Of a stretch of DNA of 64,000 bases, positions 21,258-43,629 are shown piece by piece. The stretch's first letter is position 1. Each line of letters starts with the position of its first letter. This DNA is from Terracidiphilus sp. (GTDB lineage: Bacteria; Acidobacteriota; Terriglobia; Terriglobales; Acidobacteriaceae): positions 63 through 64,062 of the forward strand of contig JBEKRU010000021.1 in assembly GCA_049518435.1 (NCBI GenBank). Reading direction: 5' to 3'. The notes under the pieces were generated by a model. It did no database searches and was not told the DNA's origin. It saw nothing but the letters and a program-made list of their open reading frames with translations. Made by a program: the position numbers and the translations under genes.

Positions 21258-22733
21258 TCACAAGCTCATGTTCTGCATTGGATTTGGCTGATCACCGACG
21301 TCGTTGCATGGATGCTTGGCGGCGTTTGCGTGTCCCCATGCGAACGCGTCCGATCCGTTGTCGACGTGTCCACGATCTCCCTTCGATGCAATCTCAGGGC
21401 AGTAATCCGGGACATCGCTCCGTTGCGCCGGAAGAGACGGTCGTATGCTCCATTTCGGCGATACTGCCTTGAATCGCAAAGCTCGGGTCCAAAAGCGCCT
21501 GGGTCCCGAGGAAGAGTTTGCCTTCCAGATGTTTTTTTTGCACTTATGTAGTTCAAACCAGCGAAGGTAGTCCTTCACTACATAAGTCATGGTCATCTCG
21601 AGGGCCGCCGCATAGTTTTGTTCGGCCATCTTCCGTTGCAGGGCCGATGACTGCAGGAGGGCGATGAGCTGCTCAGCCAGCTTGGCCGAATCGCCCTTCT
21701 TATAGTAGCGAAGCGCCATGCCTTCAGCTCCCGCCATCTCCCGAAAATCGTCGATGTCGGCGCACACGATCGGAACTCCATATTCACAGGCTTGATGTGC
21801 TGGGCCGCTCGATCCAGTGGCTGAATCGTAGGGCAAAACCAGGATGGATGTCGTCTGAAAGAGCTCAGGGATGGCTCCTTCCGGAACGTATCCGCGAAAG
21901 TCTATCGGCAACCCTGCAGCGTGTTCATCGCGAATCGACTCCCAATAACCCGCTTTCGTGTGGTGATTTGCTCCGGCAATAATCAACCGTGCGTTTGGGA
22001 CCTTCTCGAGCACGGTTGGAAAAGCTTGAATCAGTGTTTCCAAGCGCTTATAGGTTCCCCAATGCCCGATCGCCAGAATGCGCATATCCGGATTACCGCG
22101 CTGGGTAAAATCAGGCGGGATTGGAATCGAACCGAGTGTGCCGTGTGTGCCCAGCAAGACGTTTTGAGCCGAGTACTTTGCGATGAGAGTGTTTCGATAA
22201 TGGGGAAGCAGGACAGAAACTGAATTCGCCCTGAGTAATGCTTTGGTGACCAGATTACTGCCCATTTTGAAGAGCTTTTCCTGCCGAACGCCGGCGGTGG
22301 AAAAATCCACATGCTCGATAATGTTGTGCATGGTGATATGTGTGAAGAATCCCGACGCTCGCGTAAGAGCAGGCGCCGATAGCCCTCCAAAAGCGGCAAC
22401 CGGATTGTTGGGTGTGGCAAAGCTCGAGAATACGAGGTTGAACCACACAACATCGGGCTTCAACTGCCGGATGGTTTTTAGCAGGCGCCGAGGAGTTGTC
22501 AGGCTGCCGAACTTCCAACAGCGAATTACGTTGAACCCGGGCAGCTCTTTGAGTTGATGAGCCTTCAGTGAATCGCCATTCTCGTCGGTCGCGAATTCAT
22601 AGTCACTCAATTCGTCGGCGAGAATCGTCAATTCGACGTCTGGATTGCGAGAAAGCTCGCGTGCGATATGAAACGCGTACTCGTTTAGCTGGCGTCCGCT
22701 GGGAGGAAACGTGGCCACTAGGCAGATTTTCAT
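21258..22733 (-). CDS. GT4-family glycosyltransferase (GT-B fold) with an unusual ~100-aa C-terminal tail
   Basis: The N-terminus MKICLVATFPPSGRQLNEY and the C-terminal half ..RLIIAGANHH..ILVLPYDSATGSSGPAHQACEYGVPIVCADI.. are typical of GT4. Residues after about aa 390 are low-complexity and unrecognised. Confidence 0.85.
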   Translation of the reverse strand: MKICLVATFPPSGRQLNEYAFHIARELSRNPDVELTILADELSDYEFATDENGDSLKAHQLKELPGFNVIRCWKFGSLTTPRRLLKTIRQLKPDVVWFNLVFSSFATPNNPVAAFGGLSAPALTRASGFFTHITMHNIIEHVDFSTAGVRQEKLFKMGSNLVTKALLRANSVSVLLPHYRNTLIAKYSAQNVLLGTHGTLGSIPIPPDFTQRGNPDMRILAIGHWGTYKRLETLIQAFPTVLEKVPNARLIIAGANHHTKAGYWESIRDEHAAGLPIDFRGYVPEGAIPELFQTTSILVLPYDSATGSSGPAHQACEYGVPIVCADIDDFREMAGAEGMALRYYKKGDSAKLAEQLIALLQSSALQRKMAEQNYAAALEMTMTYVVKDYLRWFELHKCKKNIWKANSSSGPRRFWTRALRFKAVSPKWSIRPSLPAQRSDVPDYCPEIASKGDRGHVDNGSDAFAWGHANAAKHPCNDVGDQPNPMQNMSL

Positions 22734-22745
22734 TCGATTCCTCGT

Positions 22746-25700
22746 TCAGAAAAGACTGATGCGCACATACGGTCTGAACTGCTGGTTTTGACCACCGGTG
22801 AAGTTGAAGAAAGTTTCCTGTTGTATGCCTGCCGAAAAGCGAATCGGATAAGCGAGAATGACCGTTCCGGAATCGTCGTGGAATTTGCGGCGAAAGGGCC
22901 TGGCATACGACAGCGAGAATCCATTCTGAATTGCGTCGTAAACGTGGAAGCTCCTGGTGCTTGAATAGGCGCTGGAAAGCTGCATGTCCCAACCATGATT
23001 TGGAGCGAAATTGACTGTTCCGGCCGGGCGCAGGTTCTGTGCATCGCCCCAGCTTGCACCCACGATCCGCCATGCTCGCACATCCTCTGCGACGGCTTTG
23101 ATGTCCAGGCGTTCTCCGAATTTGCGTTCGATGCCTATATACGAAGAGGTGTAGTAAGTTTCGTAGTTCAGTGGCGAGAACTGTTGATCGGTGGCCCCCC
23201 ATCCAGTCACAAGAGCAGTCTTTCCCCATGGCGCCCCGACACGGAAATTAACAGCGGCTGAAGTTGCCAGCGAATGGAGATTGCTTTCAGTAAACGGGCC
23301 TGATTCGCGCATGACATACCCGGTGACAGAAACCGCATTGAAGAAGGAACTTGTAGATATATACGTGAAAATGCGAAAGAGGTTTTGGTTCATATCCACC
23401 GGAGACTCGGAATCGCGTCGGACGGTTGCCTGAATCCCGCTGTTAAAGGTCAACACGTTATTGCCGAGATTGATCGTAGGGTTCAGCCCCACGTTGAAGG
23501 TGAAGTCCGTAGTATTGCGATTGATGACTGAGTTCGTGCTGGGCACCGAGATTTCACCCTGCGCGTTGCGTACCTGGAAAAACCCGCTGGTAGTGGGCAG
23601 TGGGCTGAGATGCAGATGAAATACGTTTGTCGATTGCGTTTGAATGGAGGATCGAGGCGGCGGAAGCAGCGCGATATCAGAACTGGGCACTGGAAAGGAC
23701 GCATCGAGCTTTGCGTCCAGAACATACACAGTCGAATCTTCGAAGACAGGTTCCACCAGGAAATTGGAAAGTACGCTCAGAACGGGCGTGACTCTTAACC
23801 CCTCATCCGCACCCGCCTGGAGAAGATCCTGTTCGACACTTTGATCGTCCCCTTCAGCATTCGAAGCTTGGGCAAAGGAAGTCAGTGCCTCCGCGTTGTG
23901 GTGTTCCTGGCGATCAACGTTGGCTTTCGCCAGCAGATACTGGTAGTCCGTGTCATCACCGTCAGTAGCCTTCACGGCCGAGAGTTCGGCTTGAGCCCTG
24001 GCGGTGTCACCCAGCGCAAGGTAGTTGTCGGCAAAGCCAATCCGCACTTCGGAATCCGGTGCGCCAGCCGCCTTGGCACGTTGAAGATAAGTCTGCGACA
24101 AGTCGTAATCATGCATTGAACGGAGCACGTCGGCCGCTGCGATGAACTGGCTTCCGGTAGTTGGCTCGGTGGTTCCCGCTTCGCCTTCCATTTGCGCCAA
24201 TGCAAGTTGCCTTTCCGAGTCATCAGAATGGCCTTGGTCTGCCATCAGCTGTGCGATAGCCACGCGTATGCCCACGCGATCGCTGCCTGGTTGTGTGAGC
24301 GCGTTACTGAAGCGCTTCATGGCAGCATCGTGGTCTCCAAGAGTGCTGAGAGCCTTTCCCGTGGAGACATATATCTCGCCTAACTTGGATTGGGAGCCCA
24401 GTGTGGAGGCCGGTGCATGAAGGGCGCTCTCCTCAGCCAGTTGCACATACCGCAGTGTTTGACCGCGATCTTGCAGGTTCGCATAGGAGCGTGCAAGCGA
24501 CGCATAGATATCAGCGTTGCCGGGAGAATCCTTCAGCGCGATCTCGAGCTCGACGATCGCCTCGCGGTATTGCCGCAAAGCAAAAAGCGTATTCCCGAGC
24601 CCCAGGTGCAGTGAGCCATCGTCGGGAGCGTACTTCAGGGCAGCTCTATACTCATCGGCCGCCTTTTTCGGCATGTGTTGCCGCCCATACGCGGTTGCAC
24701 GAATCACGTGAATATCCTTTGAGTCGCCCAGGTACCGTTTTGCCAGATCGGCCTCACGCAGGGCTGCCTCCGGTTTTCGCAGATTAAGGCTCGCATAGGC
24801 GAGTCCGAGGTGCGCTTCGCCGTTAGCCGGGTCTCTTTTGAGGGCTGATTCGAAGTCCGTCGCAGCTTCTTTGGGCAGGTGAAGATCGTTCAACATATAG
24901 CCGCGGTTTACGTAGGCGGTCACCACCTCAGGGTCGCGAACAAGAGTCTCTGTAAAGTCCTGGCGCGCCTGCTCGCTCAGTCCTTGATGTTTGTGCACGT
25001 AGCCTTGAAGCAGCGGAATGTCAGGCTCTTTTGGGAAGACATCGAGGTACTTTGATGTCAGATCCAGGAGCTCGTCGTATTTCTCGAGATAGAGCAGATC
25101 GTAACCAAGGTAGACGACCACGTCCCGGTCTCGCGGCAACACTTTAATTGCTTCGTGGCCGACCTCAGCCGATTCCTGGTATTCCTCCTTGAAGCTGAGA
25201 TACCTTTCCTTTTCACGAAGAATTTGAGGTTCGCTATCCATTTCGCTTGTGACACGACTGAGCCAGGTCCAAGCCAAATTGAAGTCATGCGATTCTATTC
25301 CGGCATTCATTCCACCTGCAAGAATCAGGGCTCTCCGGGGAGCCAGCTCATATGCCTTGCCATAGGAGACCTGCGCTCTCTTGAAGTCACGGCGAGCGGT
25401 GTAGAGATCTCCAAGCGCAAGATAGGGTACATACAGCGAAGGGTTACCCTCCTCCAGACGCTGGAAATACTTTTCGGCTTCCAGGTCGCGTCCGGCCGCG
25501 CGCGAAGCATATCCCAGGGAGGTGAGCGCAAACCGGTTGACAGGATCCATCGCGAGAATCTGCTTATATACCGTAATTGCATCTTCGGTGCGGCCAAGCT
25601 TCATCAGGATGTCTCCATCCAGCTGCAAATCATCACGATCATGGGTGTTCATTGCGAGTGCTTCTTTCATGTCTCCCAATGCACCGTCAACGTCACCTAC

Positions 25701-26966
25701 ATTCATTTTGATCAAGGATCTCAGGCGCAGGAACTGTGCTCTCCCCGACACTTTATCGCCAAGCCTGTTGATTTCGGCCTGGGCTTCGTCGAGTTGATGA
25801 TGGGCAGCGCCTTCATCGCCAAGGTTCTTGTAAACATTCATCAGGTCCATATGCAATTGAATGCCATAGAGTGGTCCCTCGGCTGGTTCCGCTGGCAAGT
25901 TCGCAACGGCGGCCGCGTACTCCTGCGCGGCGTCTTGTTCGTGTTCCTGCAAGCTCGCAAGTTGACCTCGAATTGCGTGCAACCGATAGTAGTTTGGATT
26001 AAGCCCCGCAGCATGCTTGAGAAAGGGACTCGCCTTCTCGATGGAACCACTGGCGATCTCGGCCTCCGCGGCGGAGAGTTGTAGCCCCAGATCCTTCGGC
26101 GCCGCACTGGCCGCCTGCGCGTAAAGCCTGGCAGAATCATTCAGCTTGCCATTCAGCTGGAATGTGTACGCGAGTTCCGCCATGACGTCCGGTTTAGGCA
26201 TGCGAATGGACTGGAGTGCGGCAATCGCGTCAGGATAGTTTCCGGCCTCGCGGTAATAACCCGCCATGGACCGCTGCACTTCCGGGTTGTTCGGGTCGCG
26301 CCGCTTGGCCATCTCAAGATAATGGCTTGCCAGTTCCATTTGGTTCAGGTGCTGGTAGGAGAGCGCCATCAGCAGCTCCGACCGTGCACTTGGCTGGTTA
26401 CGTTCCGCCCGGCCCAGCCAATCGAGTGCTTCGGCGTAATTTGCCGACCTCATGTAGAGATCTCCGAGTAACAACGCGTCATCTCTACGCCTGGAGTCGG
26501 ACGCAACCGCCTGTTTGAGCAGACGCACAGCGTCTTCGGTCCGGCCCATCTGGCTATAGGTCTGCCCAAGACCGGAAAGTCCGTCGAGTGCCGTGGGGGC
26601 CAGGCGAAGACCACGGGTGTAAGCATCCACAGACTCCTGAAACTTTGCGTTGAGCCGCGCTGCGTATCCAAGCAGGAACCATAAGTGCGGATCATTTGGA
26701 GCAGTTTCCGCGGCGCGGCGTGCAAAACCAAGTGCGAGGGCGTGATCCCCGTGCTGCAAAGCCAATTCCGCTGCGCGACCAAGACGCGCATTCTGAATGT
26801 TCGATCCCCATCCAAGAGATTGGTCCGGAGACAGGGTTGCGGCAGCCGTCTTCGAGTTCTTTGAAGCGTCAGGTCCCACGTCATACACCTGCGCATCGGC
26901 GACGCAGGTTAGCGCGCCCAGTGCGAGTACCAGCGCAGCCTTCAGGAATTGAGGTCTAGCGATCAA
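22746..26966 (-). CDS. TPR-repeat protein with C-terminal outer-membrane beta-barrel (PelB/BcsC/PgaA-like export scaffold architecture)
   Basis: 1406 aa with signal peptide ..LVLALGALTCVADAQ. About 1000 aa of TPR-like repeats are followed by about 380 aa rich in alternating beta-strand patterns, ending ...FRPYVRISLF (terminal Phe). Confidence 0.8.
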   Translation of the reverse strand: MIARPQFLKAALVLALGALTCVADAQVYDVGPDASKNSKTAAATLSPDQSLGWGSNIQNARLGRAAELALQHGDHALALGFARRAAETAPNDPHLWFLLGYAARLNAKFQESVDAYTRGLRLAPTALDGLSGLGQTYSQMGRTEDAVRLLKQAVASDSRRRDDALLLGDLYMRSANYAEALDWLGRAERNQPSARSELLMALSYQHLNQMELASHYLEMAKRRDPNNPEVQRSMAGYYREAGNYPDAIAALQSIRMPKPDVMAELAYTFQLNGKLNDSARLYAQAASAAPKDLGLQLSAAEAEIASGSIEKASPFLKHAAGLNPNYYRLHAIRGQLASLQEHEQDAAQEYAAAVANLPAEPAEGPLYGIQLHMDLMNVYKNLGDEGAAHHQLDEAQAEINRLGDKVSGRAQFLRLRSLIKMNVGDVDGALGDMKEALAMNTHDRDDLQLDGDILMKLGRTEDAITVYKQILAMDPVNRFALTSLGYASRAAGRDLEAEKYFQRLEEGNPSLYVPYLALGDLYTARRDFKRAQVSYGKAYELAPRRALILAGGMNAGIESHDFNLAWTWLSRVTSEMDSEPQILREKERYLSFKEEYQESAEVGHEAIKVLPRDRDVVVYLGYDLLYLEKYDELLDLTSKYLDVFPKEPDIPLLQGYVHKHQGLSEQARQDFTETLVRDPEVVTAYVNRGYMLNDLHLPKEAATDFESALKRDPANGEAHLGLAYASLNLRKPEAALREADLAKRYLGDSKDIHVIRATAYGRQHMPKKAADEYRAALKYAPDDGSLHLGLGNTLFALRQYREAIVELEIALKDSPGNADIYASLARSYANLQDRGQTLRYVQLAEESALHAPASTLGSQSKLGEIYVSTGKALSTLGDHDAAMKRFSNALTQPGSDRVGIRVAIAQLMADQGHSDDSERQLALAQMEGEAGTTEPTTGSQFIAAADVLRSMHDYDLSQTYLQRAKAAGAPDSEVRIGFADNYLALGDTARAQAELSAVKATDGDDTDYQYLLAKANVDRQEHHNAEALTSFAQASNAEGDDQSVEQDLLQAGADEGLRVTPVLSVLSNFLVEPVFEDSTVYVLDAKLDASFPVPSSDIALLPPPRSSIQTQSTNVFHLHLSPLPTTSGFFQVRNAQGEISVPSTNSVINRNTTDFTFNVGLNPTINLGNNVLTFNSGIQATVRRDSESPVDMNQNLFRIFTYISTSSFFNAVSVTGYVMRESGPFTESNLHSLATSAAVNFRVGAPWGKTALVTGWGATDQQFSPLNYETYYTSSYIGIERKFGERLDIKAVAEDVRAWRIVGASWGDAQNLRPAGTVNFAPNHGWDMQLSSAYSSTRSFHVYDAIQNGFSLSYARPFRRKFHDDSGTVILAYPIRFSAGIQQETFFNFTGGQNQQFRPYVRISLF

Positions 26967-27554
26967 AGGTGCACCAGGGTGGAATCATTTGTTGCAGTTG
27001 GATCCGGATTCGGTCGTATAGAGGCGGCATTTGTCTCTTGCGCCTTCCAAATTGAATTGCGAGTTCGGATGCTCCGTTTTCTTTGCCGCAATTACCCGTT
27101 CCGCATTGATACGGGCGGACTGCGGCAGCAAACACATGGGATATCTCCATTGAGAGACTTGCGTGACTTGACCGTACGCCCCCGGACTTTTGATTCCTGT
27201 GCACTATTGATCAAATTCAGGACGCCTGAAATGAATCAGTTGTTGCTGTGCAAATTAGCGGAAGGCCGGGAATCAAAGCTGCAATTTCAGGACCAGGATC
27301 AGTGAAGCCACCACCCGAAAGGCCATCGCGCATCAACTTCCGCCGGAGGCAGCCTTTGGGCTACTAGCCAGAAGGGCATGCCACGACGATGCGATCAATG
27401 AGGATTACCCGGCGAGAGTGTTCGAAATTGGTCAGACTGAGAATCTTCGTATTGAGAAACTCGGCTTAATGGCTGAGCAGTGGCCACACAGCGTGCCAAG
27501 CAACATCGCGAAGTGTGTGCTGGTTGAACTCTGCGATTTATTGGAGAGGTAATC

Positions 27555-29306: not shown

Positions 29307-30430
29307 ACAAGGGACCTCTACTCGCGGTGATTCTTGCTGGCGCTACCGTGGCGCTCGTTGTGATTGGAACCGTGTGGCCGGTGCCTTCTGCGGCCGCCTA
29401 TGCCGGGGCTGGAACTCTGTTGCACTCGTCATCGACCCCGGAGGAAGCGACCGCGACCCTCGGTGACAACATTCGAACACAATCCTGGGATAAGGCGTAC
29501 GCCAGTTTCGCGAACAAGGCTGAGTTTACTGAGGCAGATTTTGTGCATGACGTGACTGGATATTACCCGAGCCTTCTCACCTACACTACTTTGGACAAGT
29601 TTGAAGTGCGATCCCTACACGCATCCCAGAATGAAGCGGAGATGCAACTCACATTGCATTGGGCGACCGTGGTTGGCAGTTCCGCAACAACGCGCGACTT
29701 GCACCTGGTAAAGAACGGAGATCGCTGGGAACCGGAATGGCCCATCATCAAGCAGCAGGCGGTTCCACCGCAGGTGATTCCAGTCAATTACTTGCGCTGG
29801 GACGTGATTTACCGCGGCCCCGGGGATGACTGGGGCGCTCAGGACGTGGAAGCTCCTCACGTTCGAATTGTGGATATGCACCCCGTCGAACGGGCCGACG
29901 GCGTGGTAATCCTCGGTGAACTTCTCAACGAAGACGTTGTGCCTGCCTATGTGTCCGTCACCGCGACTCTGATTTCAAAGAATCAATCGACCATCGGGAC
30001 CGAAGGCAGCTTTGACAAGATCTCTCACCTGTTGCTGCCCAAGCAGGTCACGCCGTTTCTCATCAAGTTTCCTAATGCGTCGTTGTCTGACATTGGAAGC
30101 ATCCGCATGACTCCTCTGTCTGCTCTCATCGCCGCCTCGGCAGACCCAGTAATTGAGATCGGCGACGAACAGTTGCATCCGAATCCAGGAGCCTCGTTGA
30201 CGGGGAAGCTCATAAATCAAAGTGGCCAGGTCGTCAACGTGGCGCATGTCCTTGGAACGTTTTACGACAAGAGTGGCAAGGTGGTTTGGGTTGCCGATCA
30301 GTATGTCGATCAGGCCCTCCCGCCCGAGACACCTGTTCCCTTCGAAATTCATATCCCCGAGGATCTCGCAAGAGACATCAGCACCCAGCGCACAGTGGTT
30401 GCCACGTACAGTTCCGGAAGCGCGCAGTGA
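29303..30430 (+). CDS. Membrane-anchored periplasmic protein with two FxLYD-like beta-sandwich repeats
   Basis: An N-terminal TM anchor (LLAVILAGATVALVVIGTVW) is followed by two similar modules (..VVILGELLNEDVVPAYVSVTATLI.. and ..LTGKLINQSGQVVNVAHVLGTFYDKSGKVVWV..). Its start and stop both overlap the neighbouring genes. Confidence 0.55.
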   Translation: MNKGPLLAVILAGATVALVVIGTVWPVPSAAAYAGAGTLLHSSSTPEEATATLGDNIRTQSWDKAYASFANKAEFTEADFVHDVTGYYPSLLTYTTLDKFEVRSLHASQNEAEMQLTLHWATVVGSSATTRDLHLVKNGDRWEPEWPIIKQQAVPPQVIPVNYLRWDVIYRGPGDDWGAQDVEAPHVRIVDMHPVERADGVVILGELLNEDVVPAYVSVTATLISKNQSTIGTEGSFDKISHLLLPKQVTPFLIKFPNASLSDIGSIRMTPLSALIAASADPVIEIGDEQLHPNPGASLTGKLINQSGQVVNVAHVLGTFYDKSGKVVWVADQYVDQALPPETPVPFEIHIPEDLARDISTQRTVVATYSSGSAQ

Positions 30431-31296: not shown

Positions 31297-31298
31297 AC

Positions 31299-31796
31299 AT
31301 GCTGAAGTCTCCGCTGATTCTATGGATATTTCTTGCCGCTGCCTCGAGCATTGGATCCGCCGAGGCTGCCGTGCGCGTGGAACCATCGAATTTACAGGGT
31401 CTGCGGCCACTACCAGAACAGACCGGGAAAGCAGCGGTTCGTGATTATCTGCAGGCATGGCAAAGTTTCAGCGCCGCCTTTGAGCAAAATCGCTCAGATC
31501 TTCTCGATCCGGCTTTCGTGGGAACTGCAAGAGACAAGCTCGCGCAAACGATTCAGCAGCAGGCTGCGTTGGGGCTTTGTACGCATTATCAGGATCTATC
31601 GCACGATCTGCAAATCGTCTTCTACTCGCCCGACGGATTGTCAATCGAGTTGATCGATAAGGTCGAATACGACCTTCAACTCCTCGATCACGACAGGGTC
31701 AAAACGACACAGCATATAAATGCGAGATACGTCATAGTACTTACACCTGCAGAAGTGCGCTGGCGGGCGAGAGTCTTCCAGGCCGTGTCCGAATAA
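31299..31796 (+). CDS. Secreted hypothetical protein (NTF2/Tim44-like suspected)
   Basis: The ATG lies 2 nt after the upstream stop. Signal peptide MLKSPLILWIFLAAASSIGSAEA. The size and pattern suggest an NTF2-like fold, but this is not verified. Confidence 0.5.
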   Translation: MLKSPLILWIFLAAASSIGSAEAAVRVEPSNLQGLRPLPEQTGKAAVRDYLQAWQSFSAAFEQNRSDLLDPAFVGTARDKLAQTIQQQAALGLCTHYQDLSHDLQIVFYSPDGLSIELIDKVEYDLQLLDHDRVKTTQHINARYVIVLTPAEVRWRARVFQAVSE

Positions 31797-31907
31797 GTCA
31801 CAAATTCGAACGTGAACGTGCGAGTTCTTGCCCTGAGGATAAGAACTGATCGAGCAGGAGAACGAATGTCCGAATGAATGCAAAACTAGATCCCCAGGAG
31901 CCACAAA

Positions 31908-32903
31908 ATGATATCCGTTGTCGTACCCATTTATAACGAAGAAGAGATCATTGTGCGCTTCCATGAGGCGCTGGTAAGTGCTCTGAACGGTGCTCACATA
32001 AGCTGGGAAGTAATTTATGTAAACGATGGCTCCACAGATGTCTCTCTCGATATGCTCAAGGAGTTGCACGCAATGGATTCGCGTGTAGTGGTTGTTGAAC
32101 TGTCGCGCAATTGGGGCCACATGGGCGCAATCTCGGCCGGCATTCTGTCCGCACGTGGTGACGCTGTCATCCTGATGGATGGCGATTTTCAGGATCCGCC
32201 GGAAGTCCTACCTAAATTGATCGACGCCTGGCGCCAAGGCGCTGAGGTTGTAGTCGCGGTAAGAAGGAGCAGGAAAGAACGGCGCAAAATCCTGGCCAAG
32301 CTCTTTCCCCTTTTCTATCGTGTTTTGGGAGCTCTCTCTGATTATCCAATACCGCTGAACGCTGGTGTCTTCAGCCTCATGGATCGAAAGGCCGTCGACT
32401 CCGTCAATGCGCTGGGAGAGAAGAACCGCTACTTGCCAGGCCTGCGCGCCTGGGTTGGCTTCAGGAACCAGGTGGTTCTTTACGATCGGCAGGATCGACT
32501 GGCCGGCGAGGGCAAGCTCTCGTTCTTGAGCCGAATCAAATACGCAATGGACGCGATCTTGAGTTTCAGTTACAAACCTTTGCGGCTCAGTTTCGCGCTT
32601 TTTGCTTTCGCAAGCCTCGTAGCCGCCATTTTATATGGATTTATGCTTCTCTCGAAGTCTTCCGTGTTGACTATGGGGTTTGGTATTGCGGCTTCAGTGT
32701 TCCTTGTCGGAGGCCTGCTTCTGCTATGCATGGGCGTGCTTGGCGAGTATCTTGGACGTGTCTACGACGAGGTGCGAAGCCGGCCCCTTTCGATCATCAG
32801 CACGGTTCTCCGTTCTCCTGCCGCCATGGAACAGCCCCAACTCGCTGTCATCGCCAAACAATCCAATGGCCAGAAAAGGAAAGACGTCATTGACGCGGCG
32901 TAG
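31908..32903 (+). CDS. GT2 polyprenyl-phosphate glycosyltransferase (GtrB/ArnC/DPM1-like) with C-terminal TM helices
   Basis: MISVVVPIYNEEE..VIYVNDGSTD..VVELSRNWGHMGAISAG..AVILMDGDFQDPPE. Two C-terminal TM helices (LSFALFAFASLVAAILYGF; FGIAASVFLVGGLLLLCMGVLG) fit the family. Confidence 0.85.
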   Translation: MISVVVPIYNEEEIIVRFHEALVSALNGAHISWEVIYVNDGSTDVSLDMLKELHAMDSRVVVVELSRNWGHMGAISAGILSARGDAVILMDGDFQDPPEVLPKLIDAWRQGAEVVVAVRRSRKERRKILAKLFPLFYRVLGALSDYPIPLNAGVFSLMDRKAVDSVNALGEKNRYLPGLRAWVGFRNQVVLYDRQDRLAGEGKLSFLSRIKYAMDAILSFSYKPLRLSFALFAFASLVAAILYGFMLLSKSSVLTMGFGIAASVFLVGGLLLLCMGVLGEYLGRVYDEVRSRPLSIISTVLRSPAAMEQPQLAVIAKQSNGQKRKDVIDAA

Positions 32904-33007
32904 AAATGAGCGACATTCTCCTGTGCGCCGCGGAGAGTGCCACTGGCTATCTTCTTCTCTAACGATGTTCGTCTTCTCCCCCAAATCCTCCAGTAATTAT
33001 GGGGCGT

Positions 33008-33964
33008 CTACTGTGTCGGAGGACAAGATGGAATGCCGTCTTCAATCGCTGTTCCCTCTTCGTGGTCGTTCCATGTCTCGACCATTACAAATGGCAGCAG
33101 ATCGTCAGGCGGAAAATATTTGTGCCACAGACTAGAGGTGTCAGCAAATGTCTGACCGCATCGCGCTGATATATGTCGGTTCAGGCTCCACGAAGCCTTG
33201 CTGTCGTCGAAGCTGGCCCACTCCGCACCGACAATGATCTTGTCCGGATACTTCGAGCGCATCGTTTCATAAAACTCGCTTAGATACTGCTCGCCCCAGT
33301 TGCTGCCGTCCGCCGCCCATCCCTTTTCTCCTGGACTGACCCAGGCATAGAAGCCATCGAATGCGTCTGCATCGGGGCCGGGAAGATTTTCTTCAATCAA
33401 CAACGGAGGAGTACTCCACTTGCTGACGAGCTCACGCACCCTTTTCCAGTCGGTGTGCTTGCCCTTTGGAAAAATGAAGATTAGAGGGCGGCCATCGTAG
33501 GTGAGATAGTTCTGATGTCCGGGCGCATTGGATGCAAGATACGTCTCGTGAAACATCGTAAAGTCCGCAAGAGCCTCGTCGGTTGCTCCGTCTTCCGCAT
33601 CGGTTTCGTCATACATCATCGCAACCTGGAACTTGCTTTCGGCGGCTATCTTCTGCATCAGTGCATAGTTCCGATCGATGAAGGGCTCCCGGTCCCCATA
33701 CCAGTCCACTACAAACGCGGAAATACCCATCGCCTTCGCGTGTTGGATTTGACTCTTTATCTCAGTGGGATCCTGTGAGGAATAGCCAACGGAAATGTGG
33801 TTTGGGTGCCCAAACCAGGCTTCATACAAGGCAATTGTCTCCGGTGAACTCCCTGTCGCTCGATGTTTCAACGGCAGAGCACTTCCCTCTCCGGGGCCGG
33901 AGCAGCCGTGAGGTAGCAAAAGAAAAAATAGGGCAGAAGTGATCGTTCGAGTAAACATAGACAT
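33008..33964 (-). CDS. Lipoprotein glycoside hydrolase (TIM-barrel, GH99/GH71-like; family tentative)
   Basis: Lipobox ..LLLPHGCSG. Also YEAWFGHP..., GISAFVVDWYGD... and a C-terminal VMVETWNDHEEGTAIE that resembles the NEWxEGT motif of GH99-like enzymes. Confidence 0.6.
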   Translation of the reverse strand: MSMFTRTITSALFFLLLPHGCSGPGEGSALPLKHRATGSSPETIALYEAWFGHPNHISVGYSSQDPTEIKSQIQHAKAMGISAFVVDWYGDREPFIDRNYALMQKIAAESKFQVAMMYDETDAEDGATDEALADFTMFHETYLASNAPGHQNYLTYDGRPLIFIFPKGKHTDWKRVRELVSKWSTPPLLIEENLPGPDADAFDGFYAWVSPGEKGWAADGSNWGEQYLSEFYETMRSKYPDKIIVGAEWASFDDSKASWSLNRHISARCGQTFADTSSLWHKYFPPDDLLPFVMVETWNDHEEGTAIEDGIPSCPPTQ

Positions 33965-34124
33965 TGTCTTATCTGTTAGAGGCCAATGGAATGCTTTAGG
34001 TTGTCGCGAATGTACCACCGCACAGCATTACTTTCATATCCAGAGCAGCCTGACTCTGCATGGTCGCATCATACCAATATCGGTGCGAAACAACCTTGGC
34101 TTTCGCCTAGGTGCGAATCCCTAA

Positions 34125-36122
34125 TTGCATTTTGAATCGGCGTTCCGGGTGATGGTGGACGGGTTGACCCCAAAAACGAAAACACTGCAGGCTCGCATCC
34201 TCTCAGGAAGCGTTGTATTGCTCTCGGGATCCGGCCTGACGACCGCGATCAACCTCGGCTACAACATTGTAGTCGCGCGGTTCCTGGGCCCAAACGGCTT
34301 TGGGCAGGCGACGGTCGTCTACACGATTCTCACTCTTATTTCCGCAGTCACACTCTCCTTTCAACTAATCTCCGCAAAGATGGTTGTACAACAGGGCTCT
34401 CCCGAAGGAAAGGCTGCGGTTTACAGGGGATTTCATCGCGGCGCGTGGGGATGCGGGATCTTCGTTGCGGTCATTTTAGTATCGTTTCAAAAGGCGATTG
34501 CGGGTTACCTCAATCTGTCTGCTCCGGCGCTCGTTGCCATCCTGGCAATGGGAGCAGCTTTCTACATTCCCCTCGGATGCCGCCGGGGCTACATTCAAGG
34601 CACCTACGGCTTTCGCCGCCTTGCAACCAACCTCGTAATCGAAGGAACATTCCGGCTCGGCGGATCGATATTGTTGATGATCGCGGGCTTTGGCGTTGCA
34701 GGCGTGATTGCTGCCAATTCTGCAGCAGTCGTGATAGCGTATTTCACTTCCGCACCTGCGCGGACTGCGCGGATTCCAAACCCCCTCCACCTTTCCAATG
34801 TCTTTCGCGAAATCTCCCAAGCTCTGGTCTTTTTCTCCGGCCAGGTACTTATCAACAACTGTGACATTGTTCTAGTGAAGCATTTTTTCCTTGCGAGAGA
34901 GGCGGGGATCTATGCGGCAGTAGCGATGGTTGGCCGAGTGATCTTCGCCTTTTCATCAGCGGTTGTAAACAGCATGTTTCCGCATGTAGCGGGCACTCGG
35001 CCCGAAGACCGAAGAGATCTCAAGGTTATCGCAACCTCGCTGCTGCTGGTCCTGTTTACTGGCGCTTGCTTGGGCCTTTGTCTGCGGATTGCGCCTGCCT
35101 GGATATGGACAACATTCTTTGGATCCGGCTTTGAGATTGCAGGCACCCACAACCTCCCCTATCTTCTCGCACTGTATGCCATCACGACGATAATATTCTC
35201 CCTAAGCGTCGTGATTATCGCGTTCGAGATGTCGTACAAGATAGCCAACACAAGCTGGATACAATTAGCGTTCAGTGGCGTAGTAATCGTGGCCATTTGC
35301 CGCCTTCATTCCTCCTTACGCGAAGTCATCCTTGTGCAACTCGTCTTGATGGCCGCTCTGCTGGTTTGCGTGGCAGTACCATTCCTCGTGGATTTGCGTA
35401 CCACCCCAAGAGAACTACTGCGGCCTGGCGTTGTACCGGCCGCCAGGTTAATTCGGAGCGTGGCTGAAGACGAAGTTATTTCGGAATTCCTGAAGAGCGA
35501 CTTTGACGCTCAGGAGTTTCAGTCGTATCAGGAGAGCTTTCGTAACATTGTTCGCGCGCCGGATTTGGGCAACGCGAATGACAACGCAAAACGGCGAGCT
35601 CTACTGTTCCTCAGGCATCTTGCCCTTTGGAAAGAGTTACCCACCGATACAAAGTGGTATGAAGTGGAAATCAAGGAAGCGGACCTGGCGCAGATACGGG
35701 CATTTCCACGAGCGCATTGGCGAAAGCTCGCGCATGGTAATTTCGCGATGACCGAAGTGACCCAGGGAATGCGAACCCGTCAACACTTGGTCGACGCTCC
35801 ATTTCTGACAAAGATGGCGTCCATAGGCGATCAACTTAATCGCGAGGATCATGGTTTCAATGCCGTGATTCTGATCGGACTTAACGAACGGGAACCTCTC
35901 ACGGTCCTAGACGGAAATCATCGGCTGCTAGCCGCGACACTCGCATCTCCCATTGGCCTCAACAAATTGAAGTTCCTTTGTGGGTTGTCGCCTCGCATGA
36001 CTGAATGCTGTTGGTATAACACCAACTTCATGACTCTTTTTCGATATGCGAGAAGCAAGCTGGCGCGGTCAATTCGCAATCCGGAAGCAGAGCTTGCACG
36101 CACCTTGCAAAGCCCTGGATGA
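34125..36122 (+). CDS. MOP/PST-type polysaccharide flippase-like membrane domain fused to a ~240-aa soluble C-terminal domain (DGNHR motif, ParB/Srx-like suspected)
   Basis: aa 1-430 have about 12-14 TM helices of Wzx/PelG-like character (..LLSGSGLTTAINLGYNIVVARFLGPNGFGQ..). aa 430-665 are hydrophilic and include ..AVILIGLNEREPLTVLDGNHRLLAATLA... The start is uncertain (TTG 34125 or GTG/ATG near 34150). Confidence 0.7.
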   Translation: MHFESAFRVMVDGLTPKTKTLQARILSGSVVLLSGSGLTTAINLGYNIVVARFLGPNGFGQATVVYTILTLISAVTLSFQLISAKMVVQQGSPEGKAAVYRGFHRGAWGCGIFVAVILVSFQKAIAGYLNLSAPALVAILAMGAAFYIPLGCRRGYIQGTYGFRRLATNLVIEGTFRLGGSILLMIAGFGVAGVIAANSAAVVIAYFTSAPARTARIPNPLHLSNVFREISQALVFFSGQVLINNCDIVLVKHFFLAREAGIYAAVAMVGRVIFAFSSAVVNSMFPHVAGTRPEDRRDLKVIATSLLLVLFTGACLGLCLRIAPAWIWTTFFGSGFEIAGTHNLPYLLALYAITTIIFSLSVVIIAFEMSYKIANTSWIQLAFSGVVIVAICRLHSSLREVILVQLVLMAALLVCVAVPFLVDLRTTPRELLRPGVVPAARLIRSVAEDEVISEFLKSDFDAQEFQSYQESFRNIVRAPDLGNANDNAKRRALLFLRHLALWKELPTDTKWYEVEIKEADLAQIRAFPRAHWRKLAHGNFAMTEVTQGMRTRQHLVDAPFLTKMASIGDQLNREDHGFNAVILIGLNEREPLTVLDGNHRLLAATLASPIGLNKLKFLCGLSPRMTECCWYNTNFMTLFRYARSKLARSIRNPEAELARTLQSPG

Positions 36123-36234
36123 TTCGGATGAAGATGCATTCGCCAGGGACGAAAGAATCGCCTTCCTTCAACCGCCACGGGAACTGCTGAATTTAATGCC
36201 TGACAACGGACTCCACGAAAAATGGGACGGGAAT

Positions 36235-36609
36235 ATGACACTTCGAGCAACTCTTGCCGTAGTGAGGTACTTGCCGGAAACAATGACAGCCAGACAGCAA
36301 AAGCTGTTTTTCGCGGAGGTGGAGAGTTGCTTCAATATTGATCGGCCTTGCATCGTGCTTGAGTGCTCAAAAGTGGGAAAGATGGACACGTCTGTGATTC
36401 ACCTTTTGCTTTGTTGCCTGGAAGAAGCCATGAAGCGCAATGGCGACGTAAAGCTTGCAGCACTCCCTCCGGCATCAAGAGCTCTTTTGGAGGTCACGGG
36501 AGTAGACCGGATCCTTGAGGTGTTTGACACGGCTGAGGAAGCGGTTGAAAGCTTCCGTCGGCCCCGGGTCGGAGTTGCTCCCCAACTGAATATGAGCGAT
36601 AGCTTCTAG
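36235..36609 (+). CDS. STAS-domain protein (anti-sigma-factor antagonist, SpoIIAA/RsbV-like)
   Basis: ..RPCIVLECSKVGKMDTSVIHLLLCCLEEAMKRNGDVKLAALPPASRALLEVTGVDRILEVFDTAEEAVESF is a typical STAS C-terminal half. The longer ORF starts at 36046, and ATG 36196 is an alternative start. Confidence 0.75.
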   Translation: MTLRATLAVVRYLPETMTARQQKLFFAEVESCFNIDRPCIVLECSKVGKMDTSVIHLLLCCLEEAMKRNGDVKLAALPPASRALLEVTGVDRILEVFDTAEEAVESFRRPRVGVAPQLNMSDSF

Positions 36610-36691
36610 CGGGAGTCGGAGAATGAAGCGCAATCGCTTCAGGATGGTCATTCTGAGGTTCCCTGCAATTACGAGGAAGGGGAGGAAATCA

Positions 36692-37207
36692 ATGAGAATA
36701 GCAAGTAGTTTGGTAGGAAGGCAGATCGCGAGCAGCCTTGTACTGTTCATGGCGTTGACGTGCATTGGATCAGCCGCGGCGCAGGAGCCGGTAACATTTC
36801 CCAGTCAGCAGCCTCAAATCGGGTCGTCTATCCCGGATCAGTCGAAAGACTCGGATCGCCGCGCTGGAAATCTGGATCTCGATTCCATCCGGTCTGAAGA
36901 AGCCTACCCGGACAACCCAGTCCCTGCGCGCCCCCAAGTTGATGATCAGGGTGGACGGCCTGGGACTTCATCATCCTCCGCCCAACAGGCACAAGATGGC
37001 ACGCCGAAACCGGTTGGCACCGCTGCAGCACCGTACGAGAAGACCACCGGTGTTGCGGCCTCCAGGCCCGTTGGAGCCGCGATCGCGCCGGCAAAGCAAC
37101 GGCGTGCGCGCTTAATCCTGATCCGTGTTGGCGTGATCGTGGGGGGCGCGGTCGCAATCGGAACAGTCGTGGCACTCTCCCACGGGAGCCCAAGTCGACC
37201 GAATTAG
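36692..37207 (+). CDS. Hypothetical Pro/Gly/Ala-rich protein with signal peptide and C-terminal TM anchor
   Basis: MRIASSLVGRQIASSLVLFMALTCIGSAAAQ is followed by a low-complexity stretch and then ..LILIRVGVIVGGAVAIGTVVAL. Confidence 0.45.
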   Translation: MRIASSLVGRQIASSLVLFMALTCIGSAAAQEPVTFPSQQPQIGSSIPDQSKDSDRRAGNLDLDSIRSEEAYPDNPVPARPQVDDQGGRPGTSSSSAQQAQDGTPKPVGTAAAPYEKTTGVAASRPVGAAIAPAKQRRARLILIRVGVIVGGAVAIGTVVALSHGSPSRPN

Positions 37208-37247
37208 GATTTGGCCCAGGACACTAAGAGGATCGAGGGGAACAGCG

Positions 37248-38012
37248 ATGCGAGCACTTCGAAATAGCAGTCGAGCCAAGTTTGTAAGCTTTTCCGGTAT
37301 TGACGGCGCTGGAAAAAGCACGCAGATCGAATCATTGTGCACTCGGCTGAAAGAAGACGGTCATAGAGTGCTGTTGATTAGGTTTTGGGATGATATCGCG
37401 AAGCTGACACAGCTCAGGGAAGGCACAGGGCACCGAATATTTAAAGGGGATAAGGGGATTGGAAGTCCGGCCGCACCGATTAACCGGCGAGACAAGAATG
37501 TCAGATCATGGTTCATGACCGGAGTGCGGTTGTGCCTTTATTTCATCGACGCAATCTCGGTCCGGTTCGTAGTGAAAAAAGCATTGCGCTCTGAAGCTGA
37601 TCTCGTGGTCTTTGATCGATACATTTATGACGAGCTTGCGAACCTGCCATTGCGCAAGCCATTCATTCGCGCATACGTTCGACTGATTATCAAGTTAGTT
37701 CCCACGCCTGATACCAGCTACTTACTGGATGCGGATCCGGTCAAGGCTCGCGCGCGAAAGCCTGAGTACCCGCTCGAGTTTCTCCATTCAAACCGTCAGT
37801 CCTATCTGGATCTATGCAAGCTGATTGGTGGGATAACTGTCATACCTCCGATGTCCATCCAGGAGGTCGAGCGAGCCGTTCTCAAGCACGCTCAACGCGC
37901 GTTATCATTCGGAACTGCACAACAAGCAAGCAACGGCGCCATAGAGTTGAGGGATTACGGCGATGAACTGGCTGAGTTAGAGAGCCAGCGAACACGCCCC
38001 ACTGCTTCCTGA
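37248..38012 (+). CDS. Thymidylate-kinase-like P-loop protein
   Basis: FVSFSGIDGAGKSTQIESLCTRLKEDGHRVLLI (Tmk-type P-loop) and VFDRYIYDELANL (DRY-like motif). It lies within the polysaccharide locus, so it is probably not the housekeeping tmk. Confidence 0.65.
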   Translation: MRALRNSSRAKFVSFSGIDGAGKSTQIESLCTRLKEDGHRVLLIRFWDDIAKLTQLREGTGHRIFKGDKGIGSPAAPINRRDKNVRSWFMTGVRLCLYFIDAISVRFVVKKALRSEADLVVFDRYIYDELANLPLRKPFIRAYVRLIIKLVPTPDTSYLLDADPVKARARKPEYPLEFLHSNRQSYLDLCKLIGGITVIPPMSIQEVERAVLKHAQRALSFGTAQQASNGAIELRDYGDELAELESQRTRPTAS

Positions 38013-41159: not shown

Positions 41160-41809
41160 CTATCCTCTCCTCCACCTCAAGGTGGAAGCGACCAATTATC
41201 GTGCGCAAACGTACGATTGAGCGGACAACGGCAGCGATTCGGGCACATGCTTTATGCTGTCCATCGTTTGCGCGTCGCCTCAGACGACTCGCGACTCACT
41301 TCTCAATTGACTCGCGCCCGCCGCCTCAAGGACCGAACAACATATGACCGGATGAAAGCGACAGCAGTACTGCAGCAGTGCTTTGACACAGTTTCATTTG
41401 TCTGTGCTCTTTTGCCCGCCTCGCATCCTCTGCGCTTCTAACCCGGGCTCTTCCTGCCGTCCTGTAACTGGGAATCTCATGTCCGGACTTTGCACGGCGT
41501 TGTACCCGTGTCATGTCCTTCAAGAAGCAGTGTTACTTAAGCATTTGATTATTGCTGGCTAATATTGACCTGAGCATTTACCGGTAATTGAGACACGGGA
41601 TAGTCTGGACCAGATTCGGTCGAGTCGCCGAGAGCATCTCAGCGACGATGTTCAAACATTCCCCTGCGTCGCGAGGCAGGCAGCCATTTTATTCATAAGT
41701 AGAGACCCCCTTGAATATCAGTTACATATCTCGCGCACAAGAGTTATCTCCTTACGCGGACGTGCGGGAACTTGCATCCAAGTGACCATTGAACATCTTG
41801 GGGGATTTG

Positions 41810-43323: not shown

Positions 43324-43548
43324 TGCCGGAGCGTCCTCTCCCCGATCTTCTACACAACGTCGGGTCTTAATCGGCCTTCTGCGACGGCAGATATTAAACG
43401 CAACAATTGACCCGCCGCACCTGATGCAGGTGTCGGTCGAATGTGCTCAGACAATCGTCTGAGCCAGCCCTAGGATCATGTTCAGAGAAGAAGTGGGACA
43501 GTCGTTATAAGGGCAGGTCCGCTTCGTCATTGCAAATGAGGTTACAAC

Positions 43549-43629
43549 ATGTCAACAATCCTGATCGTTCTATTGGTACTTTTTCTGCTCGGAGGCGGGG
43601 GCTGGGGATATTCGCGGTGGCGTCGTTAA
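43549..43629 (+). CDS. 26-aa hydrophobic micro-protein (DUF3309-like character)
   Basis: MSTILIVLLVLFLLGGGGWGYSRWRR. GAGG lies 7 nt upstream of the ATG. Small and unverified. Confidence 0.4.
   Translation: MSTILIVLLVLFLLGGGGWGYSRWRR

Follow-up and report, generated by a model that had tools for sequence, protein, structure and literature searches.

A candidate multi-phylum system for envelope-glycan assembly and export, organized around a GT-C-fold enzyme, in Terracidiphilus and other Acidobacteriaceae

Introduction

Contig JBEKRU010000021.1 of Terracidiphilus sp. (Acidobacteriota) carries, at positions 21258–38012 of the 64,000-nt stretch that we analysed (hereafter the window), a locus that encodes a GT-C-fold membrane glycosyltransferase, three periplasmic partners, GT4 and GT2 glycosyltransferases, a MOP-superfamily membrane protein, a periplasmic hydrolase and a tetratricopeptide-repeat (TPR) protein with a C-terminal porin-like barrel. 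On balance, we favour the view that this block, which starts at 21258 or, with an adjoining phosphoesterase gene, at 19012, is the Acidobacteriaceae version of a multi-phylum and so far uncharacterised system for the assembly and export of an envelope glycan. Whichever reading of its biochemistry holds, the locus very probably constitutes one dedicated glycan assembly and export system. We consider that the genes belong together because some of them are fused in other organisms, because their order is kept within the family while the flanking genes change, and because the same components recur at distant loci. The invariant core of the system is a new GT-C family with three periplasmic partners: a 375-aa protein, an Ig-like protein and a small domain that other lineages carry as part of a hydrolase.

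In soil, Acidobacteriaceae rank with the most abundant bacteria, and both their persistence and the aggregation of soil are thought to depend on their extracellular polymers. To our knowledge, almost nothing is known of the genetics of these polymers. The locus occurs in essentially every sampled Acidobacteriaceae species genome and its GT-C enzyme has a median identity of 77%, making it a strong candidate for specifying a core envelope or matrix glycan. Relatives of the locus are frequent in metagenomes from marine and freshwater sites and also occur in cultured Bacteroidota; all are annotated as hypothetical.

Materials and methods

Families were assigned to the window proteins using Pfam (E ≤ 0.01) and NCBIfam searches. 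Structures were modelled using AlphaFold2 (AF2) and the folds were compared with the PDB using Foldseek. Two sets of related loci were compiled. The Acidobacteriaceae set comprised 80 genome loci from this single family, with GT-C identities of 71–87%; counts are from the 57 species loci with full 10-kb flanks. The distant set comprised 80 metagenome loci retrieved by alignment of 1000-aa forms of the GT-C enzyme; counts are from the 36 loci with full flanks.

Results

The GT-C enzyme and its three periplasmic partners

The 583-aa GT-C protein of the window had no match in Pfam or NCBIfam. Its AF2 model, built with 38 homologues (pLDDT 89.2, pTM 0.90), comprises ~13 transmembrane (TM) helices, a small periplasmic α/β domain (~residues 390–530) and a last TM helix, which brings the C-terminus back to the cytoplasm. 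According to Foldseek, all 33 PDB matches of this model at E < 0.2 were GT-C enzymes. AftD was the top match, and the others included STT3/AglB/PglB, AftA, ArnT, DPY19, ALG9/12 and Emb; the matches with E ≤ 1e-3 had TMq values of ~0.37–0.52. At the start of the first periplasmic loop, where GT-C enzymes keep their catalytic acid, residues D41, H45 and H51 are near-invariant. Distant homologues matched PMT_2 (3.1e-8; 34.4 bits) and, just under threshold, PTPS_related, and one relative carries the UniRef name DUF2723 protein. The window protein reached none of the gathering thresholds of PMT_2, PTPS_related, DUF2723/TMEM260-like and YfhO: it is a member of the GT-C clan that belongs to no modelled family. 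Its homologues formed 834 clusters at the 50% level, most of them 900–1160 aa long. Within the Acidobacteriaceae, the GT-C gene is the most conserved of the block.

The three genes that follow encode the periplasmic partners, and the start and stop codons of the four genes overlap or abut, an arrangement indicative of translational coupling. The 375-aa protein has an N-terminal helix-plus-sheet module followed by two β-sandwich modules that are FxLYD-like (weak FxLYD_dom match, 8e-4). In most other lineages it forms a C-terminal extension of the GT-C enzyme. The 289-aa Ig-like protein starts at a GTG that overlaps the preceding stop, not at the open reading frame (ORF) start at 30286. It is homologous to a 481-aa protein encoded at the same position in Fibrisoma (BLASTP 1e-7), the relatives of which match Big_1/Invasin_D3. 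The 165-aa protein is homologous to an N-terminal domain (residues 71–155) of a 525-aa GH5-like protein of Fibrisoma (BLASTP 8e-9), and in other lineages, too, a clan GH-A (GH5-like) hydrolase carries this domain at its N-terminus. In tblastn searches, the 165-aa protein had matches in 35 distant loci, always directly downstream of the Ig-like gene.

Fusion proteins linking the components

The commonest form of the GT-C enzyme among its homologues is a fusion with the 375-aa protein. For example, the C-terminal half of P0241 (965 aa) is 40% identical to the window 375-aa protein (3e-87), and P0256 carries a distant copy of it (7e-13). In P0242 (1007 aa), the fusion partner of the GT-C enzyme is instead a GT4 with 44% identity to that of the window (4e-105). 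The topology of these fusions is self-consistent: the C-terminus of the GT-C enzyme is cytoplasmic, where a GT4 must sit, and the 375-aa module has its own TM helix with which to return to the periplasm.

The P0242 gene lies in locus L081 (587–12214), where it is followed by genes for an NAD-dependent epimerase/dehydratase, an ArnC/DPM1-like GT2, two DegT-type aminotransferases and a DedA/VTT protein. This gene content hints at an amino-sugar variant of the system.

Conservation within the Acidobacteriaceae and in other phyla

The block from the GT4 gene to the P-loop gene was retained in 52–57 of the 57 Acidobacteriaceae species loci, whereas the flanking genes dropped to 8–18 (Table 1). Five loci (L033, L040, L045, L063 and L073) kept the whole block, and in these no GtrB-type GT2 homologue was detected within the 10-kb flank; the GT2 gene may have been relocated or replaced.

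The distant loci, from marine and freshwater metagenomes, encode GT-C enzymes ~35% identical to the window protein. Named relatives are from Bacteroidota (Fibrisoma limi and Spirosoma soli), a Rhodobacteraceae metagenome-assembled genome, other Pseudomonadota and several Chloroflexota. Among the 36 distant loci, a GT2 was encoded in 35, a full-length GT4 orthologue (E ~1e-52 to 1e-59) in 34, a MOP homologue of ~420 aa (E 1e-19 to 1e-25) in 33, an Ig-like protein in 33, a hydrolase in 32 and a TPR protein with a PgaA-like porin in 22. Genes of the GDP-mannose pathway (ManC, ManB or PMI) adjoined 11 of the loci. The components were arranged in at least 10 different orders or orientations. In Fibrisoma, the order is GT2, GT-C fused to the 375-aa homologue, Ig-like protein, the GH5-like protein (a P170-like fusion), GT4, MOP and TPR.

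The phosphoesterase, STAS, 194-aa and P-loop proteins and the C-terminal extension of the MOP protein had no counterparts in the distant loci. The STAS and P-loop proteins and the MOP extension are additions confined to the Acidobacteriaceae, while the system itself spans several phyla.

Other regulatory domains were encoded at some distant loci. In L119 (8648–9832, minus strand) and its marine relatives, the GT2 is fused to an N-terminal response-regulator receiver domain, which suggests direct control of lipid-sugar donor synthesis by phosphorylation. A hybrid kinase with PAS, HisKA, receiver and Hpt domains is encoded beside the GT-C gene in Rhodobacteraceae-type and Fibrisoma loci (L167, 5927–9927; L082, 5955–9989; L164, 21182–23093), and such a kinase occurred in nine of the 36 full-flank distant loci. 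L167 and L082 additionally hold a GerE-type response regulator gene beside the GT-C gene.

A sequence-only reading that preceded this analysis had proposed a candidate exopolysaccharide or glycoconjugate export locus of atypical composition. The co-occurrence counts and the fusions support this and show that the genes form a single, conserved unit. The AF2 and Foldseek results likewise confirmed its GT-C-like membrane protein, and the lipid-carrier glycosylation pair that it had recognized, GT2 plus GT-C, is present. It had treated the GT-C group as an addition to a GT4–TPR pair, an order of importance that our data reverse: the GT-C enzyme and its three periplasmic partners are the evolutionary core.

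The TPR-porin exporter

The exported 1406-aa protein consists of ~1000 aa of TPR repeats followed by a barrel (~22749–23795, residues ~1058–1406) that ends in ...RISLF, with a terminal Phe. The last ~350 aa had no Pfam match, and the PgaA, BcsC and PrsT models covered only the TPR repeats of the protein, not the barrel. An AF2 model of residues 1000–1406, built with 29 homologues, contained ~16 long antiparallel strands (pLDDT 64, pTM 0.64). In Foldseek searches, this model matched outer-membrane barrels exclusively, including PgaA (4y25; TMt 0.56) and AlgE (TMq 0.42), as the sequence-only reading had anticipated for this C-terminus. No sequence relation of the window barrel to the barrels of BcsC, PgaA or PelB was detected. 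The identification as a porin is thus supported by the model at the level of architecture only. By comparison, the Fibrisoma TPR protein matched the PgaA model through the porin region (1.1e-18; residues 245–627 against 372–753 of 800). A PEP-CTERM/PrsT system was considered and rejected: the PrsT match was sub-cut-off and confined to the TPR repeats, and no exosortase is encoded at the locus.

The GT4, GT2 and MOP proteins

The catalytic part of the 491-aa GT4 spans ~residues 1–395 and the tail after it is poorly conserved. In the Pfam and NCBIfam searches, the protein matched generic GT4 families alone and no family named PelF. A profile of its orthologues matched generic GT4 enzymes in the PDB (sucrose-phosphate-synthase-like, MshA, PimA and GlgA); the weak best PDB match of the GT4 was PimA.

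The GT2 aligned along nearly its whole length with PgfS (6.5e-73; residues 2–298 against 3–303 of 308) and ArnC (6.5e-42; residues 2–302 against 8–313 of 316), in both cases under the equivalog cut-off. These alignments include its two C-terminal TM helices; the PgaC and NodC models aligned to the N-terminal ~95–112 residues only. From these similarities, the GT2 can be placed in the GtrB/DPM1-type class of polyprenyl-phosphate sugar synthases, not with a named orthologue, and the prediction is that it supplies the GT-C enzyme with a lipid-linked sugar donor.

The MOP protein is made up of a membrane part of ~430 aa and a cytoplasmic extension of ~235 aa. It matched no PelG family in Pfam (E ≤ 0.01) and nothing at all in NCBIfam. 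The extension (35415–36119) was conserved in 65 of 67 acidobacterial loci and is missing from the ~420-aa MOP proteins of other phyla; it had no Pfam match and no sequence match in the PDB. It contains the motif VLDGNHRLLAA, in which DGNHR may be of the ParB/Srx-type DGxHR kind. Single-sequence PDB searches with the GT-C, GT4, MOP and hydrolase proteins and with the MOP extension returned nothing significant; the informative comparisons were those by profile and by fold.

The hydrolase and the accessory proteins

The ORF of the lipoprotein hydrolase reaches 34018 and its likely start is Met19, upstream of the lipobox Cys39. A profile of nine acidobacterial orthologues matched the Bacteroides GH99 endo-α-mannosidase (4acy/4acz) over nearly the full length (2.3e-6), and the alignment pairs WNDYEEGT with NEWHEGT.

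The 749-aa phosphoesterase has a lipobox, two tandem Thr/Ala/Ser-rich Ig-like repeats of ~85 aa each and then the catalytic domain. It is a probable accessory member of the system; its role might be to free a phosphate-linked glycan from the lipid carrier, or it might be unrelated. The STAS protein is a putative lineage-specific regulator, the gene for which probably has its real start past the stretch shared with the MOP gene. The 194-aa protein has hydrophobic segments at both ends and a middle rich in Ser, Pro, Ala and Gln. The P-loop protein, encoded by the last conserved gene of the acidobacterial block, resembles dTMP kinase around the P-loop only.

Organization of the locus and neighbouring genes

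The locus consists of two divergent groups of genes (Table 1). On the minus strand, the GT4 gene lies 12 nt downstream of the TPR gene, and its stop overlaps the phosphoesterase gene by 4 nt. Because of this overlap, the phosphoesterase gene is probably in the same operon as the GT4 gene, and the block then begins at 19012. On the plus strand, the GT-C gene is followed by those of the three exported proteins, GT2, MOP, STAS, the 194-aa protein and the P-loop protein; the hydrolase gene, on the minus strand, sits between the GT2 and MOP genes. All of the genes listed in the sequence-only reading were found in place on ORF, Pfam and NCBIfam evidence; it had left out two genes, those of the phosphoesterase and the 194-aa protein.

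Table 1. Features of the Terracidiphilus locus and its immediate flanks, with their occurrence in the Acidobacteriaceae species loci
Feature	Coordinates	Strand	Evidence or remark	Loci (of 57)
Multicopper oxidase gene, upstream	17241..18929			8
PLC/AcpA-like phosphoesterase lipoprotein, 749 aa	19012..21261	-	PF04185 3.2e-54; PC_PLC TIGR03396 2.3e-40 (sub-cut-off)	42
Cytoplasmic GT4 (GT-B fold), 491 aa	21258..22733	-	Glycos_transf_1 8.8e-16; Glyco_trans_1_4 6.3e-17	56
Exported 1406-aa TPR scaffold with C-terminal outer-membrane β-barrel (predicted)	22746..26966	-	Signal peptide; TPR_19 5.8e-42	56
Divergent intergenic region	26967..27554	.	588 bp, between TPR/GT4 operon and GT-C operon	
GT-C-fold (class A) membrane glycosyltransferase, 583 aa	27555..29306	+	AF2 model and Foldseek	
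Membrane-anchored periplasmic partner, 375 aa	29303..30430	+	Start overlaps GT-C stop	57
Exported Ig-like (Big_1/Invasin_D3-like) repeat protein, 289 aa	30427..31296	+	Signal peptide; weak Invasin_D3 match	57
Exported domain protein, 165 aa	31299..31796	+	Signal peptide	57
GT2 polyprenyl-phosphate glycosyltransferase (GtrB/ArnC/PgfS/DPM1 type), 331 aa	31908..32903	+	Glycos_transf_2 1.2e-33	52
GH99-like (GH71/GH99 clan) periplasmic lipoprotein hydrolase	33008..33964	-	Glyco_hydro_71 1.6e-7; Glyco_hydro_99 1.1e-3 (weak)	54
MOP-superfamily (Wzx/PST-like) membrane protein	34125..36122	+	Polysacc_synt_3 7.8e-8; Polysacc_synt 2.7e-5	54
STAS-domain protein (anti-sigma-antagonist-like)	36046..36609	+	STAS 1.1e-11	54
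194-aa bitopic protein	36623..37207	+	No family match	54 (43 over ≥40% of length)
P-loop NTPase/kinase-like protein, 254 aa	37248..38012	+	Thymidylate_kin 2.1e-9, residues 16–43 only	54
Next downstream gene	38065..39078			18

The divergent intergenic region presumably carries the promoters of both operons. Nucleotide conservation of this region across species was not found, and its 118-aa ORF had no tblastn match in the related loci; neither a shared regulatory element nor a hidden small gene such as GtrA was found in it. No Rfam family was detected in 18000–40000. According to the Pfam and NCBIfam searches, the products of the window locus contain no PilZ, GGDEF, EAL, BcsA/PgaC-type synthase, Wzy, polysaccharide co-polymerase (PCP), outer-membrane polysaccharide export (OPX) or phosphoglycosyl-transferase (PGT) domain.

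Several neighbouring genes were noted. Two overlapping plus-strand ORFs, 41789–42550 and 42442–43323, jointly span one PF04185 phosphoesterase (profile positions 1–123 and 131–356); they represent a frameshifted gene or an assembly error, and make up a second PLC/AcpA-like gene near the locus. At 45950–47464 (plus strand) lies a gene for a KaiC-like double-domain ATPase (PF06745, 1.5e-77), which several small co-oriented ORFs (43443–45953) precede. An acidobacterial-type VWA protein is encoded at 40107–41159 (minus strand; TIGR03436, 3e-57); it occurred in three of 57 related loci and is not linked to the locus. Nor are a CarboxypepD_reg-domain protein (48025–49740, minus strand) or a GWxTD-domain protein (49843–51573, minus strand).

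Discussion

The product of the locus is most likely an exported glycan that is assembled in the periplasm. We propose that the GtrB/ArnC-type GT2 would place a hexose on polyprenyl phosphate at the cytoplasmic face of the membrane. The cytoplasmic GT4, tethered to or fused with the GT-C enzyme, would make a lipid-linked primer or short backbone, and the lipid-linked species would be flipped by the MOP protein. The GT-C enzyme and its carbohydrate-handling periplasmic partners would then extend or build the glycan in the periplasm from polyprenyl-phosphate sugar, following the logic of mycobacterial lipomannan and arabinan synthesis. The GH99-like lipoprotein would trim or release the chains, and the TPR scaffold would lead the polymer to its own C-terminal porin, as PgaA, BcsC and PelB do. 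Regulation may be exerted by the STAS and P-loop proteins and the MOP extension in the Acidobacteriaceae, and by receiver domains or the hybrid kinase elsewhere.

Within this scheme, we tentatively assign the role of main periplasmic chain-builder to the GT-C enzyme, at somewhat less than even likelihood. This assignment is favoured because no other component is as conserved or as tightly linked as the GT-C enzyme, because its top structural match is the chain-building AftD and because its partners are large periplasmic modules. If the assignment is correct, the system joins lipid-carrier periplasmic glycosylation to TPR-porin secretion, areas that have so far been treated apart, and the enzyme represents a new GT-C family for CAZy. 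A further possibility, to which we give slightly less credence, is that the system represents a new route of exopolysaccharide (EPS) synthesis, in which a periplasmic GT-C polymerase complex uses polyprenyl-phosphate monosaccharides, no polymer crosses the inner membrane and the product is handed directly to a PgaA/BcsC-type TPR-porin. Such a route would be a pathway class apart from the Wzx/Wzy, ABC-transporter and synthase-dependent routes, and would be common to Acidobacteriota, Bacteroidota, Alphaproteobacteria and, without the porin, Chloroflexota.

Whether the glycan contains mannose is, in our judgement, an evenly balanced question. The hints of mannose are the match of the hydrolase profile to GH99 endo-α-mannosidase, the β-mannanase-like clan GH-A matches in distant loci, the ManC, ManB or PMI neighbours in 11 of the 36 distant loci, and the weak similarities to PMT_2 and PimA.

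Several points weigh against the proposed scheme. The distant loci were gathered via the GT-C gene and many are from related marine genomes, so the true number of independent events is lower than their counts suggest, a bias for which the diversity of gene orders and phyla compensates in part. The GT2 of the distant loci resembles that of the window over the N-terminal ~80–170 aa only: to judge by sequence, it is of the same class and not clearly orthologous. Fusion of the GT-C enzyme to a GT4 was seen in one case, on a single 12-kb metagenomic contig. The confidence of the barrel model is moderate (pLDDT 64), and the acidobacterial barrel has no detectable homology to the PgaA-like barrels of other lineages; a profile comparison with the TPR protein of L119 found no relation (probability 1%). 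In Chloroploca (Chloroflexota), the components encoded within 10 kb are limited to the GT-C fusion, the Ig-like protein and the hydrolase, with no TPR-porin. The lack of a porin would fit an organism without a classical outer membrane, as judged from this one locus. No initiating PGT or lipid-primer enzyme is encoded in the locus. The known Gram-negative pairs of GT-C and GT2 decorate the glycan of another pathway rather than polymerise one. The inference of sugar and linkage is weak because the hydrolase belongs to an α-specific family in Acidobacteria and to a mostly β-specific clan elsewhere. Finally, the donor, the acceptor, the order of steps, a polymerising rather than decorating GT-C enzyme and the identity of the sugar are all inferred from the folds, families, fusions and co-occurrence that we observed; the proposed function draws on sequence, models and gene context.

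The best-surviving alternative, which we nevertheless consider rather unlikely, is a Pel-like synthase with periplasmic decoration. Here the GT4 and MOP proteins would polymerise and translocate a backbone, the GT2 and GT-C enzymes would add side chains, and the hydrolase and TPR-porin would process and export the product. The decoration would follow the GtrB/Gtr*, GacI/GacL and GT136 systems and the export those of Pel and poly-N-acetylglucosamine (PNAG). A GT4, a MOP protein, a TPR-porin and a periplasmic hydrolase are encoded at the locus, the GT4 and MOP genes travel together and are mostly adjacent in the distant loci, and the characterised Gram-negative GT-C three-component systems are all decorators (PMC11127046). 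However, the MOP and GT4 proteins match no PelG- or PelF-named family, and the locus encodes neither a PelD-, PelE-, PelC- or PelA-like protein nor a receptor of cyclic di-GMP (c-di-GMP). Moreover, it is the GT-C enzyme, not the GT4, that is most conserved, most tightly linked and provided with three dedicated periplasmic partners; in Chloroploca it is retained although neither a GT4 nor a MOP gene lies nearby, and its top structural match, AftD, builds chains.

We regard as improbable a protein or lipid glycosylation system in which the GT-C enzyme acts as an oligosaccharyl- or mannosyl-transferase on exported proteins such as the Ig-like protein, using a lipid-linked glycan made by the GT4 and GT2 and flipped by the MOP protein, and in which the TPR protein is either a chaperone or an outer-membrane protein with no connection to the system. 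The structural matches do include STT3, AglB, PglB, DPY19 and PMT-type enzymes, and relatives of the GT-C enzyme match PMT_2. Further, the best GT2 match, PgfS, is from a streptococcal protein-glycosylation machine, and the exported Ig-like protein is always encoded beside the GT-C gene. These similarities are set against two hallmarks of polymer secretion, a periplasmic hydrolase (32 of 36 distant loci) and a TPR-porin (22 of 36 distant and 56 of 57 Acidobacteriaceae loci). In addition, no WWDYG-type oligosaccharyltransferase motif was noticed in the small periplasmic domain of the GT-C enzyme on inspection of its sequence, no formal search having been made.

Least probable is that there is no single system, and that two or three unrelated envelope operons (TPR/GT4/phosphoesterase, GT-C/exported proteins/GT2 and MOP/STAS/P-loop) are kept together by the close kinship of the genomes: synteny alone is weak evidence among 80 genome loci of one family with GT-C identities of 71–87%, and the STAS, P-loop and phosphoesterase genes lack distant counterparts, but the block is conserved where its flanking genes are not, the GT-C enzyme occurs fused to the 375-aa protein and also to the GT4, and the GT4, MOP, GT2, hydrolase, Ig-like and TPR-porin genes accompany the GT-C gene across phyla, in many different arrangements. 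This explanation is largely refuted for the core genes and may still hold for the phosphoesterase, STAS, 194-aa and P-loop genes.

Comparison with known systems

The locus shares with the Pel system of Pseudomonas aeruginosa (PelA–G) a cytoplasmic GT4, a MOP inner-membrane protein, a periplasmic hydrolase and a TPR-porin, as well as the lack of a BcsA-type processive GT2. It differs in having no match to PelG, to PelF-named families, or to PelC, PelD (the c-di-GMP receptor) and PelE, and in that its hydrolase is GH99-like and not a PelA hydrolase/deacetylase. No GGDEF, GAF, PilZ or deacetylase domain was present in any product of the locus. Its conserved core, made up of a GT-C enzyme, the three periplasmic partners of that enzyme and a polyprenyl-phosphate GT2, is an addition relative to Pel. 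A PelB-like feature, the TPR scaffold with a C-terminal porin, is present at the level of architecture and not of sequence homology. The locus is not a member of the Pel family, and "Pel-like" is an analogy. The sequence-only reading had seen in it the skeleton of a Pel-like system; as a statement of homology this does not stand, given a MOP protein that is not PelG, a GT4 without a PelF-named match, a GH99-like hydrolase and a barrel unrelated by sequence to those of BcsC, PgaA and PelB. Its observation that a c-di-GMP receptor and a processive GT2 synthase are missing agrees with our domain searches of the products. Overall, the genes co-occur in related genomes, the C-terminus of the TPR protein is porin-like and the set shows no orthology to a characterised capsule or O-antigen pathway.

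Three-component systems of extracytoplasmic glycosylation (GtrA/GtrB/Gtr*, ArnC/ArnEF/ArnT, GacI/GacK/GacL and the Citrobacter GT136 system) likewise use a GT2 polyprenyl-phosphate sugar synthase, a putative flippase and a periplasmic GT-C enzyme. They decorate the glycans of separate O-antigen, teichoic-acid and lipid A pathways and have no exporter of their own. By contrast, the window locus itself encodes a GT4, a hydrolase, a TPR-porin and the Ig-like and other periplasmic partners, and its GT-C enzyme is of a non-Pfam family. With a GT4, a hydrolase and an exporter of its own, the locus may well be self-contained rather than act on the glycan of a separate pathway. No GtrA or SMR-type flippase is encoded at the window locus, where a MOP protein is present instead. 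In the Citrobacter GT136 system, a MATE/MOP-superfamily protein has been proposed as the flippase for the polyprenyl-phosphate sugar (PMC11127046).

The combination of GT4, GT2 and GT-C enzymes is also the logic of mycobacterial and corynebacterial lipomannan, lipoarabinomannan and arabinan synthesis (GT4, PimA/PimB; GT2, Ppm1; GT-C, MptA/B, EmbA–C and AftA–D). The mycobacterial GT-C enzymes, which carry periplasmic carbohydrate-binding modules and build chains outside the cytoplasm, resemble the window GT-C enzyme with its partners, yet at 12–15% identity the analogy is functional only. Moreover, the carriers of window-type loci are classical diderms (plus Chloroflexota), the product would be exported via a TPR-porin rather than retained in a mycolate envelope, and the genes are clustered in one locus with a putative MOP flippase.

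The exporter shares with PgaA, BcsC, AlgK-AlgE and NfrA an N-terminal TPR scaffold and a C-terminal barrel of ~16 strands ending in an aromatic residue. It differs in a far longer TPR region, of ~1000 aa, in a barrel that has no detectable sequence homology to those of PgaA and BcsC, and in a partner synthase other than PgaC/D, BcsA, Alg8/44 or NfrB. More broadly, the locus shares with the synthase-dependent EPS systems (cellulose, PNAG, alginate and NGR) a TPR-plus-barrel exporter and a periplasmic hydrolase or lyase, and differs in having no processive GT2 synthase. Its products include no c-di-GMP receptor (PilZ, GGDEF I-site or MshEN), and STAS and P-loop proteins are present instead. A Wzx/Wzy capsule or O-antigen pathway was rejected: by family searches, neither the window locus nor the examined distant loci encode a PGT, Wzy, PCP (Wzz/Wzc) or OPX (Wza) protein, and only the MOP protein is Wzx-like. 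An ABC transporter is likewise missing from the window locus.

A full-text literature search of incomplete coverage found no published description of this gene set, in line with the sequence-only reading, which could name no described system with the same parts list; an earlier description is possible. One paper on Actinoplanes, promising at first, concerns unrelated clusters. By analogy with the systems compared here, the locus would work as a hybrid of three things: a GT-C system of the three-component kind, periplasmic assembly as for lipomannan, and export through a TPR-porin as in synthase-dependent systems.

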